DNA of 64,000 nt from Acidobacteriota bacterium (GCA_040005235.1 JBDTZG010000003.1:32001-96000), one strand, 5' to 3'. Shown: positions 59,182-64,000, counted from the stretch's first letter. The notes: a model not told the origin generated them from the letters alone. Made by a program: numbers and translations.

Positions 59182-61350
59182 GTGCTCGCGGTGAGAACCC
59201 AATGGGGATCTGCCGATCCACGGGCTCCGCGCCGCTTCTTCGGTCTGGCTCATTTCGCCCGTTCGCTCGTCGAAGCGCTGTGGAAATGCGCGCCCTTCTT
59301 TGGCCTGTACGCCCTCTCTTTCGTTCTGCTCAAAGAAGTCGGCCAGGGTCGAGAGACTCTCGCCGCATTACTGGATTTGGGCCCGGCCAACATCTCCTGG
59401 TTCCTCTTCGCCCTGCTGTTGGGGGTTTCGAGCCTCTTTACCGCGTCGTTCCTCTTTCTTCTGCTCGACCGATGGAACTATGCAGCCGCGGACGGTTCGC
59501 GGGCTTTTTGCCGCATCTGGGTCCCTTCTGTCCTCACCCTCTCCGCCTCCTTGGTCATACCCATAGCGGCGGAGCGGAGTGCGGCGCACTCCAAATTCTT
59601 CGATGTATTGTTGGGGTTCCCCATCTGCCTCCTGATTCCCGCCCTCGTAGGCCTGGCCTGGTCGCGAACCCGCCCCGTCTTCGCGCCCGCGCGGACGATT
59701 TTCATCCTCGTCGGAGGCGTCAGTCTGCTCGCCTCTTTCTTCATCGGCCTGCTGGCGTTTTATGGCTTCTGCTTCGTGTTCCTCACCGCATTCTGTTTTC
59801 TGATCCGGGACGACTTCCGCGACGGCAATCCGAACTTCCGGCCCTGGGCCGACCTGCATCCGAACGGGCTCTTTCATGCGACGCTGCTTTGCCTCGCCGT
59901 GCTGTGGCTGTCGAACACCTCGGTCGCCAACCGGATGCTCGTCGGCACGCCGATGATCGTCCTTTGCGGTTTCTCGTTCTTCGCGGGACTGGCTTACCTT
60001 TTGACCGGGCTCCTGAGCCGAATTTCACCCGGGGCCGTGTGGACCGGCTGGGGCCTTCTGTGCCTTCTCTTGGTTCTCACGCCGGTCAACCATGAACCCC
60101 TTCGACTCCTGCCTCGCGCGCCGAATCCAACGCGACGCCTAGCCCCGTCGGCCCACTTCGTCGAGTGGCTCCGCTCCCGCCCCGAGGTGCAGGAAGGGAA
60201 CCGGCCCTACCCGGTGTTCTTCGTCGCGGCCGAAGGCGGGGGCATTCGCGCCGCCTACTGGACCTCCACGCTGCTCGCGAGCCTGGAGGAGCGCTATCCC
60301 GGTTTCACTTCGCACGTGTACGCGATCAGCGGCGTTTCCGGCGGCAGCGTCGGTGGCGCGATCTACGACGCCATGTTTCGCGATGCCTCCGGCGCAAAGC
60401 GATGCGCTCCTCTGGTCCAGGGCGGCCTGAAGGGTCTTCGCCCCTGCACGGCATACCTTTTCCAGTGGGATCTTCTGGGGTCGCCGCTCTCCGCCTTGCT
60501 GCTCCACGATCTGCCGTTCGGCTGGCTCGGCGTACGACGGGCCCACGATCTCGAACAGAGCCTGGAGATCGCCTGGTTCGCCGACCTGGAGAACCGCCGC
60601 TTTGAAGAACCGTTCCTGGATTTGTGGCGCGATCGGACCTATCAGGTCCCCTCCCTGATCCTGAACGCCACCTCCGCGGACAACGGCCACCGCCTCGTCC
60701 TCTCAAACCTCGCCGCCCGCGGCGAGCTCACGGCCGAAACCGGCGTGGAGGAGCTCCTGGACCGGCCGGTCCGGCTGAGCACCGCTGCTTTCTTGAGCGC
60801 GCGCTTCCCCTTGCTCAGCCCCGTCGCGACGTTTGAAACGCCCGCCGGCAAGGCCTATCGGCTGGTCGATGGCGGCTATTTCAATAACTCCGGCCTGGCG
60901 TCGCTCGCGCGCCTCTTGCGCGCGGTGATCCCCGCGGTGGCCGGCAGCGAGCTGGCGGGCCGGATCGAGCCGCACGTTCTGGTGATCTCCAGCCGGCCGG
61001 CCGGACCGCCGGCCGCGCCGGGTCGCCTCGCCGGATCGTTTGCCGGAGCGTTGGTCGGACCGGTGGCGGTGCTTCAGAGCACCGGCGAGGCTCATGACGA
61101 AACCTACCTCGGCGAGATCGAACGAATCGTCGGCGCCGGCGGCGTAGCGACGGATCTCCGTCCGATCGAGGGTTCGTCCGAGGCACCCTTGGGCTGGTTC
61201 TTCTCGGCGGCGACGCGCTGCCAACTGGACCGGAACGTCAACGAGGTCACGAACCAGTCGAAAGGGTCGAAGGCGATCGCTCGCGCCTTGGAACTTCCAG
61301 CGCGGCCGCCGGCCGCTTGGACCTCCTGCCCGCCCGCTCCGGAACCCTGA
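59182..61350 (+). CDS. Polytopic membrane protein with C-terminal patatin/cPLA2-like domain
   Basis: ~9-10 N-terminal TMs; AAEGGGIRA, SGVSGGSVG, SARFP, LVDGGYFNNSG; start uncertain. Confidence 0.85.
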   Translation: MLAVRTQWGSADPRAPRRFFGLAHFARSLVEALWKCAPFFGLYALSFVLLKEVGQGRETLAALLDLGPANISWFLFALLLGVSSLFTASFLFLLLDRWNYAAADGSRAFCRIWVPSVLTLSASLVIPIAAERSAAHSKFFDVLLGFPICLLIPALVGLAWSRTRPVFAPARTIFILVGGVSLLASFFIGLLAFYGFCFVFLTAFCFLIRDDFRDGNPNFRPWADLHPNGLFHATLLCLAVLWLSNTSVANRMLVGTPMIVLCGFSFFAGLAYLLTGLLSRISPGAVWTGWGLLCLLLVLTPVNHEPLRLLPRAPNPTRRLAPSAHFVEWLRSRPEVQEGNRPYPVFFVAAEGGGIRAAYWTSTLLASLEERYPGFTSHVYAISGVSGGSVGGAIYDAMFRDASGAKRCAPLVQGGLKGLRPCTAYLFQWDLLGSPLSALLLHDLPFGWLGVRRAHDLEQSLEIAWFADLENRRFEEPFLDLWRDRTYQVPSLILNATSADNGHRLVLSNLAARGELTAETGVEELLDRPVRLSTAAFLSARFPLLSPVATFETPAGKAYRLVDGGYFNNSGLASLARLLRAVIPAVAGSELAGRIEPHVLVISSRPAGPPAAPGRLAGSFAGALVGPVAVLQSTGEAHDETYLGEIERIVGAGGVATDLRPIEGSSEAPLGWFFSAATRCQLDRNVNEVTNQSKGSKAIARALELPARPPAAWTSCPPAPEP

Positions 61351-62186: not shown

Positions 62187-62468
62187 GTCGCCTCCCTCCC
62201 GTTCCGTCGTCGCTGCATTTCAGAGATAGAGTAGAGCCCTTCGTGTTGGGACGTACAGCGAGGGGCGATCTTATGAGAACGTTGCCGTCGGAATTCGCCG
62301 ATCTGTTGTCCCGGAAGGGACGCGACTGGGAATGAATGAAACGGTTTAACACTTCCTTCAGGTTTCAGCATCCTTCTGGGTCGTGCCTCCTCGAAAGTCG
62401 GCGACGACGCCGAATTCGAAGGAGGCGCCAACCGGAGCCCTGAAGGCTCCTCAACTCAGGAGTTGTCC

Positions 62469-63212
62469 ATGAAGAAGTTTGTCGTTCGCCTTTCCGTCGG
62501 TTTCCTGTTGGCCGCCTTCGTCCACTCTCCCGGTTTCGCCTTCGAGGGGACCGGGTCGATCGCGAGCGAGGAGGCGTTCCTCTCCTCGCTGGGCGATCGC
62601 GCGATCTTCGTCGCGCCGGGCGTCTACGAAGTCAAGCTGAATTCCAAAGAGACGATGCGCGTCGCCTTCGGCGATGCGGGAAGGCAATTCGATCGCGCTC
62701 GCTTCGAGGGGGAGCTTGCCAAAGTGCAGGCCGATCTCGCGCAGACGGCCCACCCGTCCCGCGAGCTGCTGCGGAAGGCGCATCGGCTGGAGGATCTGAT
62801 CGCCGGCCTTCGGACTCCCCAAACCCGGGCCGCGGTGACGGGCTGGACCTGCCCGGGGACCACGATTCAATACACCTACTCCTTGGACGGCTATCTCACT
62901 AGCGGCGTCGTCACCGCCAAAGCGAAGATCGGGCTCGGCGTCGATTTCGGCCCGCCTCCCCCCTCCTACCCGAACCGCTACGCAGACGCTTACGCCACGG
63001 CCTACCGGTCACCCTCCTGCTCTGAGAACTCCGTCAGCGCAAGCGACTCCCTGACCAACGGCGCTCTGGGCTTCGCCACCGCCACCGCCTCGGCCTCCTG
63101 CTCGGGCACCTGCATCGCCTGGGAGACGTTCAGCGAAGTGACGCAAGCCGGTTGCACCGACGGCTACCGCTCGCTGACCCGCTTTGGCGGCAGCTTGGTG
63201 AACTGCCCCTGA
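62469..63212 (+). CDS. Secreted hypothetical protein
   Basis: RBS AGGAG; signal peptide ending GFA; short coiled coil, then a Cys-containing beta region. Confidence 0.75.
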   Translation: MKKFVVRLSVGFLLAAFVHSPGFAFEGTGSIASEEAFLSSLGDRAIFVAPGVYEVKLNSKETMRVAFGDAGRQFDRARFEGELAKVQADLAQTAHPSRELLRKAHRLEDLIAGLRTPQTRAAVTGWTCPGTTIQYTYSLDGYLTSGVVTAKAKIGLGVDFGPPPPSYPNRYADAYATAYRSPSCSENSVSASDSLTNGALGFATATASASCSGTCIAWETFSEVTQAGCTDGYRSLTRFGGSLVNCP

Positions 63213-63305: not shown

Positions 63306-63605
63306 ATGGACCCACAAACCGCTGGCTTGGTCTCCCTTGGAATCCTTGCGCTCGTCGCGCTCGCCTACCTAGCCGTGTTCCGCAAAAAAGGCGAGGTGAA
63401 GATCGATGGGCCAGGCGGCACCGGCCTCTCGTTCAAAGGAAGCAACGAAGCCGACCGGCTCCCGGCGGGCGAAACGATGGCCGAGCGCATTCGAGCCAAG
63501 GGCTCGGTCGAAGTCGTAGGGAGCACGGGCGGAAACGTCAGCGCTCGAGAACTTGATGCAGGCGAGAACGTTCGCGTGGAGAATCAGCCCGGCCCAAAAG
63601 CTTGA
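63306..63605 (+). CDS. Single-TM small protein with two C-terminal 21-aa amyloid-like pseudo-repeats (candidate NLR effector)
   Basis: TM at residues ~7-25; GETMAERIRAKGSVEVVGSTG / GNVSARELDAGENVRVENQPG; stop overlaps the NTPase start. Confidence 0.75.
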   Translation: MDPQTAGLVSLGILALVALAYLAVFRKKGEVKIDGPGGTGLSFKGSNEADRLPAGETMAERIRAKGSVEVVGSTGGNVSARELDAGENVRVENQPGPKA

Positions 63606-64000
63606 CCCCCGGCGCTCCGAGCGTGACGGGGGAGATCTCGAACGTACACGCGGGAAAGAACGTGGTTCTCGCGGGGACCTACATTGAGGCCGCCGGAACC
63701 CTCACCTCCCGCTCCCCTCTCCACCAGCTCCCCGCCCCACCCGCCGATTTCGTTGGCCGCACGGAAGATCTCACGGCGCTTCGCGCGTCGGTAAGGAAAG
63801 GCGGCGCCACAATCTACGGCCTTCAGGGTCAAGGTGGCGTGGGAAAGACCGCGCTGGCTCTGGTGCTCGCCCGCGAGATGTCGGCGGATTTCCCCGACGC
63901 GCAGATCTTTCTCGATCTTCAGGGGGTGAGCGAACGGCCGCTCTCGTCTGCCGACGCGATGGCGCATGTGGTGCGCTCATTCTATCCCGACGTGAAGCTC
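63602..64000 (+). CDS. NB-ARC/STAND NTPase (bacterial NLR-like), 5' part; runs off the right edge
   Basis: Hand translation: MTPGAPSVTGEISNVHAGKNVVLAGTY...LHQLPAPPADFVGRTEDL...LQGQGGVGKTALAL...FPDAQIFLDLQG; absent from the ORF track because there is no stop in the window. Confidence 0.85.
   Translation, partial: MTPGAPSVTGEISNVHAGKNVVLAGTYIEAAGTLTSRSPLHQLPAPPADFVGRTEDLTALRASVRKGGATIYGLQGQGGVGKTALALVLAREMSADFPDAQIFLDLQGVSERPLSSADAMAHVVRSFYPDVKL

Follow-up and report, generated by a model that had tools for sequence, protein, structure and literature searches.

The window described here is a stretch of 64,000 nucleotides (nt), positions 32001-96000 of contig C18 in a 6.2-Mb Acidobacteriota genome with a G+C content of 65.9%. 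Near its 3' end lies a small open reading frame (ORF) for a transmembrane (TM) protein with two beta-rich repeats (R1 and R2), and this ORF overlaps a second one for a STAND/NLR-type NTPase that is preceded by a related motif (R3). As judged from sequence comparison between related loci, the small gene and the NLR gene are most likely one recoded gene that is read in two ways. Programmed -1 frameshifting at the junction would, with good probability, give rise to a 99-residue TM-repeat protein and to a 765-residue fusion (98 + 667 residues) of TM helix, repeats, NB-ARC domain and tetratricopeptide repeats (TPR). An earlier model-generated reading of the same DNA, referred to below as the original prediction, had proposed an effector and an NLR as separately translated partners with amyloid-type signalling motifs.

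The small ORF ends in GGC CCA AAA GCT TGA. The second ORF can be opened at a TTG (63602-63604) that overlaps this stop as TTGA; it is 3'-open in the window and is 666 amino acids long once extended along contig C18. Both the 99-residue ORF and the overlap are present as originally described. The NLR frame is -1 relative to the small ORF, and the junction carries a C CCA AAA heptamer followed by a spacer and a GC-rich stem-loop (Table 1). Beyond the heptamer the -1 frame reads Pro-Lys-Ser-Leu-Thr-Pro-Gly. CCA makes up 3.7% of the proline codons and AAA 26% of the lysine codons in this genome, and the composite of heptamer and stem was found only at four paralogous cassettes among the 148 CCCAAAAG sites of the 6.2 Mb. 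In Sharma et al. (PMC4066793), stimulators are said to begin 5-8 nt downstream of the slippery motif, and C_CC.A_AA.A is listed among the motifs that shift at more than 0.10% in E. coli without a stimulator, the best motif reported there being C_CC.A_AA.G. A scan against Rfam gave no match at the junction. The sequence GGAG was considered as a Shine-Dalgarno-like stimulator and rejected; the window, the C9 paralogue and G414 have it 11 nt ahead of the heptamer, and its position is inconstant elsewhere. The frame break itself is crossed by contigs of two sequencing runs with 0 differences and 0 gaps, and these two runs may be source samples of the assembly; two further runs (X3 and X4) contained small, diverged parts only.

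The junction signal is conserved. Blind profile searches matched 12 of 92 genomes in the taxonomic family of the window, 11 of 201 in its order and 2 of 401 in its phylum and, with one metagenome scan, yielded 15 loci with a short small ORF and protein identities down to 24-35%. At all 15 the sequence CCCAAAAG is followed after 5 nt by a C-rich arm and its G-rich partner, and the NTPase lies in the -1 frame. Two more blind searches around distant members (58 and 141 genomes, three matches each) added three split loci, namely G1038 (C CCA AAA, stem CCCCC/GGGGG), G1143 (C CCA AAA, stem CCCCGCGC/GCGCGGGG) and G1163 (C CCA AAC, stem GCCCCGACC/GGUCGGGGC). G1025, an in-frame long form, has neither the Pro-Lys dipeptide nor the heptamer. 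The X_XXY_YYZ heptamer is in register at all 18 split loci found by protein profile alone, which span 14 genomes and one metagenome contig; this count includes one locus truncated by a contig end (G592) and one whose small ORF is broken upstream, with only the R1-R2 part in register (G589). A DNA-pattern scan of species-representative genomes gave 81 sites, 10 of which end an ORF of a family member. Six of these loci were new (Chloroflexia, two loci; Anaerolineales, Anaerolineaceae, Acidobacteriota and Tepidisphaeraceae, one each). Overall, the heptamer is in register at 24/24 split loci (C CCA AAA, with a single C CCA AAC), and the signal is spread over Acidobacteriota, Chloroflexota and Planctomycetota. 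A contig search with one DNA pattern returned 182 matches and no relatives, and profile searches of five of the pattern-found genomes recovered in each the single member already known. The family was carried by 2 of 351 genomes in the Chloroflexota sample and is therefore sporadic in that phylum.

A stem-loop accompanies the heptamer at all 24 split loci, its C-run core beginning 6-7 nt downstream. The stems were compared in a per-locus helix table, since unequal loops shift the 3' arms out of register in a MAFFT alignment. Eleven distinct stems occur, all with identical core C-G pairs; the inner pairs differ from stem to stem but remain paired. A second small hairpin, CUCCYUUCARGGAG, was observed about 30-45 nt past the heptamer in the G048 group (L100, L011, L012, L112 and L072); it may contribute to stimulation or to a pseudoknot.

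The window's genome holds four cassettes, one each on C18 and C9 and two in tandem on C5, with protein identities of 56-81%. All four retain CCCAAAAG and the stem, and the frame break recurs in these paralogues and in 13 other assemblies. The TTG of the window is not conserved among loci: at its position C9 has CTG, and the two C5 copies have TGG. The C5 pair (C5:86245-92500; L004 and L005) consists of two complete cassettes in direct tandem, each with small protein, signal and an NLR of the NB-ARC/DUF7779/TPR_10 type. Their small proteins are 55-57% identical to that of the window, and the arrangement suggests a recent duplication with diversification of the sensor.

Start codons are mostly missing where the second ORF would have to begin. 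All 24 loci have the NLR in the -1 frame, and a canonical start stands at the junction in three of them (TTG in the window and in L083, ATG in L061); elsewhere the junction codon is CTG, CTA, TGG, CGA, AGA, CAA, CCA, GTA or similar. The -1 frame of C9, G147, G083 and G617 reaches its first ATG, GTG or TTG at codon 66-86, after the conserved HQLP entry to the NB-ARC domain at codon 43-54. The -1 ORFs, which open ahead of the heptamer, are 669-923 amino acids long wherever the contig allows completeness. When the window copy, C9 and L006 are compared from the hairpin to HQLP, the first, second and third codon positions of the -1 frame show 16, 17 and 45 differences, respectively. This bias marks the stretch as coding, though in C9 it lies before any start, and by this comparison the -1 frame is under purifying selection.

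An exhaustive profile search collected 509 representative clusters at E<=1e-3 (259 at E<=1e-10) and also found in-frame forms, which an earlier word-index search for longer forms had not (0 significant among 2362 candidates). C-terminal endings were analysed in the best 149 family representatives, 132 short and 17 long in-frame forms. Pro-Lys occurs within the last 14 residues in 110 of the 132 short forms, as PKx-stop in 68, PKxxxxx-stop in 27, PK-stop in 3 and with other spacing in 12. The ending PKxxPPx accounts for 20 of the 27 PKxxxxx-stop forms, PPx being the 5' arm of the stem read in frame. The remaining 22 short forms comprise 11 with KK close to the C-terminus and 11 with neither dipeptide; two of the latter end in PNx, the ending given by a C CCA AAC heptamer as in G1163. 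The KKx and PNx forms (for example P0066, P0090, P0104 and P0146) would fit heptamers of the type A AAA AAN and C CCA AAC, respectively. Pro97 and Lys98 are among only six columns conserved at >=90% in 129 sequences of 30% mean identity. After R2, only 2 of the 17 long in-frame forms have Pro-Lys; one of them, P0123, reads Pro-Lys-Ser-Leu-x-Pro-Gly in frame across the junction into the NB-ARC P-loop. The rarity of Pro-Lys in in-frame forms thus indicates that the protein does not need the dipeptide, which goes with the split arrangement.

The signal, its register and conservation, the absent starts and the coding of the -1 frame are established by comparing sequences, and from them we infer that frameshifting takes place at some rate. 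Several observations weigh against this reading. In E. coli, C_CC.A_AA.A shifts only modestly. Six of the 24 loci were retrieved by the signal itself and count for its spread, not for its conservation. The stem-loops (-14 to -27 kcal/mol in 45 nt) are not significantly more stable than their dinucleotide-shuffled counterparts (z between +0.3 and -3.0, mostly near -1), since runs of C and of G can pair whatever their order; what counts for the stem-loop is therefore where it lies and that it is conserved. With an invariant core stem, classical covariation is confined to the inner pairs. In G589 the small ORF is interrupted upstream of the junction (L028/L031, G589:C40:114447-114729): a frame change separates the TM part from R1, heptamer, stem and -1 NB-ARC ORF being intact, and the cassette is either a decaying copy or an assembly error. 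A partial relative retrieved by protein, L007 (positions 1822-2034 of a metagenome contig), lacks R2, Pro-Lys, heptamer and hairpin; its profile match stops after R1 and gives way to a divergent tail, and it is a decayed or differently built relative. Finally, a canonical NTG overlaps the stop at three loci (TTGA in the window, ATGA or TTGA at the two others) and a CTG does so at four more (CTGA), so that termination-reinitiation could contribute at those loci.

The same overlaps speak for two separate genes, the alternative that survives best and that is nonetheless unlikely. The NLR would be started at the TTG or a near-cognate codon, coupled to termination of the small ORF, and R3 would template an amyloid-like fold in R1/R2 of the free effector. 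Overlap is reported for 42% of Bell/NLR ORF pairs (Dyrka et al., 10.1101/2020.01.06.895854), R2 and R3 have a common pattern, and gene callers cut the family into proteins of about 100 amino acids. Two genes leave unexplained, however, the invariant in-register heptamer of rare codons. Pro-Lys is lacking after R2 in 15 of the 17 long in-frame relatives. A canonical start is absent from the junction at 21/24 loci, the first start lies past the NB-ARC entry in four, and direct reading of the sequence revealed no purine-rich Shine-Dalgarno within 5-12 nt before the window's TTG. The motifs are no more alike within loci than between them (permutation p 0.36 for R2/R3 and 0.09 for R1/R3, 21 loci), and the co-evolution expected of templating partners, which the original prediction had put forward as a check, is therefore not seen. 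Because of the conserved signal, the -1 register and the mostly absent start codons, a separately initiated NLR is not upheld; natural in-frame fusions exist, and what the original prediction had named as its own refutation, one frameshifted gene in relatives, applies in a special form, as a real frame break on a conserved -1 frameshift signal.

It is more improbable still that heptamer and hairpin form some other cis element, such as an attenuator, an RNase site or an RNA structure by which initiation of the NLR is masked or regulated, and that the NLR starts at a non-canonical codon downstream. The stem-loop is conserved and overlaps the junction where an initiation region would be. Such an element does not account for the exact X_XXY_YYZ register at 24/24 loci, nor for the coding signature of the -1 frame and the conserved R3 upstream of any canonical start; the stem lacks the T-run that an intrinsic terminator would have after it and is thus not one, and the junction has no Rfam match. 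Decaying NLR pseudogenes or an assembly error at the A-run, for which the broken copy in G589 could be cited, are effectively refuted already by the identical break and register at 24 loci in many assemblies, the intact -1 ORFs under purifying selection, the gap-free agreement of contigs from two runs, and an A4 run too short for systematic indels.

With programmed frameshifting as the preferred explanation, most ribosomes would remain in the zero frame and stop one codon past the heptamer, which would give a bitopic membrane protein of 99 residues. The stem-loop 6 nt downstream would pause ribosomes at C CCA AAA, and a fraction would slip back by one base. These would read on through Ser-Leu-Thr-Pro-Gly, R3, NB-ARC and TPR to complete a membrane-anchored STAND/NLR protein of 765 residues. 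The whole short protein would thereby be the N-terminus of the long product.

The anatomy of the encoded proteins agrees with the original prediction of a TM helix, a hairpin, beta-rich repeats and a matching motif before the NTPase. AlphaFold2 (AF2) models and alignments support each of these elements, and the small protein is not a Bell/HeLo helical bundle, having one helix plus beta strands in the model. In the family, the N-terminus follows the pattern M-D-x-x-T, about 19 hydrophobic residues and [FY]-R-x-R, and in 104 of 119 members residue 2 or 3 is acidic. The TM helix of the window's protein is preceded by Met-Asp and followed on its C-terminal side by Arg-Lys-Lys, and by the positive-inside rule the protein would be oriented N-out, C-in. 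With a 129-sequence alignment, AF2 places hairpin strands at residues 28-35 and 39-46 (pLDDT 70-77), the turn having G35 in 83% and P36 in 89% of the sequences. Residues 57-92 form four short strands at low confidence (pLDDT 52-61); in an in-frame relative, the equivalent four are modelled at pLDDT 88-95. The small protein had no Pfam family at E<=1 except a sub-threshold LPXTG-anchor match on the TM helix, and neither it nor the in-frame forms of about 290 residues belong to a Pfam or PADLOC family. An ESM Atlas search returned unnamed clusters only, and fold searches gave generic helical bundles (best E 0.046) and single helices (Z<4), which allowed no fold assignment.

The extension past the window's end that the original prediction had recommended revealed its sensor: TPR repeats occupy residues 495-640 of the 666-residue ORF (TPR_12, E 2.4e-28). 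The NB-ARC match (residues 65-241, E 1.2e-4) scores 21.9 bits against a Pfam cut-off of 23.5; five homologues at other loci score above the cut-off, at 28-44 bits. By these domain matches the second ORF qualifies as a STAND/NLR NTPase, with an NB-ARC P-loop NTPase followed by a repeat sensor.

Table 1. Features of the recoded cassette in the window (positions counted from the first nucleotide of the window).
Feature	Position	Strand	Remarks
Zero-frame ORF, short product, 99 amino acids	63306..63605	+	ends Pro97-Lys98-Ala99-stop
N-terminal TM helix, residues 3-25	63312..63380	+	AF2 pLDDT ~90; family consensus
Beta-hairpin, residues 28-46, conserved I-K-G-P-x-G turn	63387..63443	+	AF2
Repeat R1, residues 55-75	63468..63530	+	
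Repeat R2, residues 76-96	63531..63593	+	
Slippery heptamer C CCA AAA	63593..63599	+	X_XXY_YYZ, zero-frame register; P-site CCA, A-site AAA
-1 frame reading from heptamer into STAND NTPase	63593..64000	+	to contig C18 position 97602
6-nt spacer GCTTGA	63600..63605	+	contains zero-frame TGA 63603-63605 and TTG 63602-63604
GC-rich stem-loop, 11 pairs + 2-nt bulge	63606..63632	+	RNAfold; presumed frameshift stimulator
Repeat R3, -1 frame, residues 11-25 of TTG ORF	63632..63676	+	h-x-x-h-[QH]-[AG]-G-[RK]-[DN]-h-h
NB-ARC domain start	63794..64000	+	continues beyond window, then TPR sensor
P-loop GxxGxGKT	63827-63850	+	

The family consensus of R1 is h-x-h-E-D-h-x-S-R-x-G-G-h-x-A-x-D (h, hydrophobic) and that of R2 is h-x-h-x-x-h-E-A-x-G-D-h-x-h-T-S. 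In a shuffle test in ungapped register with the anchor columns excluded, R2 and R3 had a common pattern at 21 loci (mean BLOSUM 0.76 versus -7.45 +- 0.31 shuffled, 11 non-anchor columns; z 26, computed on non-independent pairs). R1 and R3 were weakly alike (z 6.8), and R1 and R2 were indistinguishable from shuffled sequence (z 0.7). With hhalign, R1 versus R2 gave E 0.009 (reversed-profile control 0.3), and R1+R2 versus R3 gave E 0.011 (control 0.35). The likeness of the C-terminal motif of the small protein to the N-terminal motif of the NLR thus has support that is modest for such short profiles. The proposed layout of two repeats plus one is better put as R2 and R3 clearly alike, with R1 a more divergent copy. 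In-frame relatives hold R1, R2 and an R3-like motif within one chain. A Pfam scan produced no HRAM (PF11558) or Bell match at E<=1. Amyloid behaviour of the repeats is possible, and putative templating would be compatible with two products from one gene because the long and the short one would share R1-R2. Of the proposed effector-NLR pair, what stands is a TM/beta-repeat protein directly before an NB-ARC/TPR STAND NTPase with a related motif; that these are two separately translated partners does not.

A membrane-directed role in cell death or defence is suggested for both products by domain logic and by analogy to Bell/HeLo proteins. The TPR sensor would trigger oligomerisation of the NB-ARC domain and so cluster the N-terminal TM/beta modules; these would recruit the more abundant short form via the shared R1-R2(-R3) beta module, and the membrane damage that follows would lead to cell death or abortive infection. 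A more specific model is offered tentatively and is rather doubtful: frameshifting would set a fixed ratio of abundant short effector to rare membrane-anchored sensor, R1-R3 would nucleate short copies into a membrane lesion, and a HET-S/NWD2-like pair would thus be made by the ribosome and reused with NB-ARC-TPR and NACHT-FGE receptors across at least three phyla.

Among known systems, the Bell-BASS/NLR pairs of Dyrka et al. (10.1101/2020.01.06.895854) are alike in the N-terminal hydrophobic helix with an acidic residue at position 2-3, a feature stressed there for Bell/HeLo/MLKL helices, in the short C-terminal beta motif of the small protein, and in the collinear overlap with an NB-ARC/TPR protein that has a related motif ahead of the NTPase. 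By this analogy a role in regulated cell death is likely. The present family differs in having a single TM helix and a beta module instead of a five-helix bundle, an NLR mostly without a start of its own and joined via a conserved -1 frameshift signal, no co-variation of motifs within pairs, and an occurrence in Acidobacteriota, Chloroflexota and Planctomycetota. Neither 'frameshift' nor 'transmembrane' appears as a word in the text of that preprint. A further system of this type for comparison is Bab/Agp of E. coli (10.1101/2024.11.07.622273). Fungal HET-S/NWD2 (HRAM, PF11558) is similar in a membrane-targeting N-terminus and in its repeats, each some 21 residues long, of which the short protein has two and the NLR has one beside its NTPase domain. 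Here there is no HRAM match, all three repeats would lie in cis on the long product, and R1-R2 fold confidently in the AF2 monomer of an in-frame relative, unlike the natively disordered prion-forming domain.

The junction resembles those of dnaX (tau/gamma), IS3/IS911 OrfA-OrfAB, the phage tail chaperones G/GT and Gag-Pol in the X_XXY_YYZ heptamer with a stem-loop 5-8 nt downstream and, as proposed here, in two N-terminally coincident products whose ratio RNA determines. That a shift close to the end of a short ORF can extend the product into a large enzyme is described by Atkins et al. (PMC5009743) and Sharma et al. (PMC4066793), and term look-ups in these papers found nothing on NB-ARC or NLR. 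The present gene differs from the known cases in that it encodes a chromosomal STAND/NLR receptor where the others serve replication, transposition or the virion, and in its heptamer, C CCA AAA/C in place of the usual A AAA AAG. Literature searches retrieved no report of frameshifting in NB-ARC, NLR or STAND genes; the supplementary pair lists of Dyrka et al. might include such pairs as overlapping genes. The predicted long product also resembles the all-in-one HeLo- and Bell-NLRs, of which rare Bell-NLR fusions were noted by Dyrka et al. (10.1101/2020.01.06.895854), in being an NLR with an N-terminal membrane helix clustered by oligomerisation. Here the helix is predicted to be a constitutive TM anchor, the fusion would arise by recoding, and a free N-terminal module would be co-produced. 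Plant CC-NLR resistosomes, which are NLRs with a fused N-terminal membrane-acting domain, are comparable to the predicted long product.

The module is joined to more than one kind of partner. At 8 of 9 tested loci the -1 ORF is an NB-ARC protein, with TPRs wherever it is complete, and at one it is NACHT plus FGE-sulfatase. In the latter (L081:4875-7643, Anaerolineales) the small ORF and signal lead into a -1 frame of 923 amino acids with NACHT and an FGE-sulfatase (SUMF1-like) domain, so the cassette serves a different STAND sensor there. In-frame forms connect the module to an unnamed four-helix domain or to HD-CE and a GHKL ATPase. The first arrangement, TM-R1-R2-R3 plus the four-helix domain, is found in a class of about 290 amino acids (P0048, P0053, P0061, P0062, P0064, P0084, P0085, P0088 and P0125; L158) from lower-GC organisms with the C-terminus ...SFRKRLS, and this domain had no clear match among solved structures. 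The second is P0076 (866 amino acids), from a lower-GC organism, in which TM-R1-R2-R3 is followed in frame by HD-CE and HATPase_c_3. In the window's genus, the TM part (residues 1-55) is also in frame with open frames of 544-612 amino acids (L013, L014 and L015 in G198, G122 and G038); L014, the one of these that was read, has TPR_10/12-like repeats and no visible NB-ARC.

Two genes upstream of the window's cassette, a protein of 722 amino acids (59182-61350, + strand) combines a long N-terminal half with multiple TM segments and a patatin-like phospholipase domain (Pfam E 2.1e-8). PADLOC gave no match for this protein, which might act on membranes as a further defence effector. The ORF that adjoins the small ORF upstream (62463-63212, + strand) encodes 249 amino acids with a signal-peptide-like N-terminus and a Cys-rich C-terminus, and gave no Pfam or PADLOC family.

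To our knowledge, few chromosomal, non-mobile bacterial genes employ -1 programmed frameshifting, namely dnaX and a handful of others. If the interpretation given here is true, a large family would be added to them, with 509 clusters of which most short forms end on the slippery-site dipeptide, and it would be the first case of frameshifting in an NLR-type immune receptor, as far as literature searches tell. The analysis defines an unnamed N-terminal module of TM helix and beta repeats that is joined, in frame or by recoding, to NB-ARC-TPR, NACHT-FGE-sulfatase or HD-CE plus GHKL ATPase. Entries annotated in their thousands as 'hypothetical 100-aa proteins' or as 'N-terminally truncated' STAND NTPases would then be halves of one gene, and frameshifting would provide a way to hard-wire the ratio of sensor to effector in a cell-death system.

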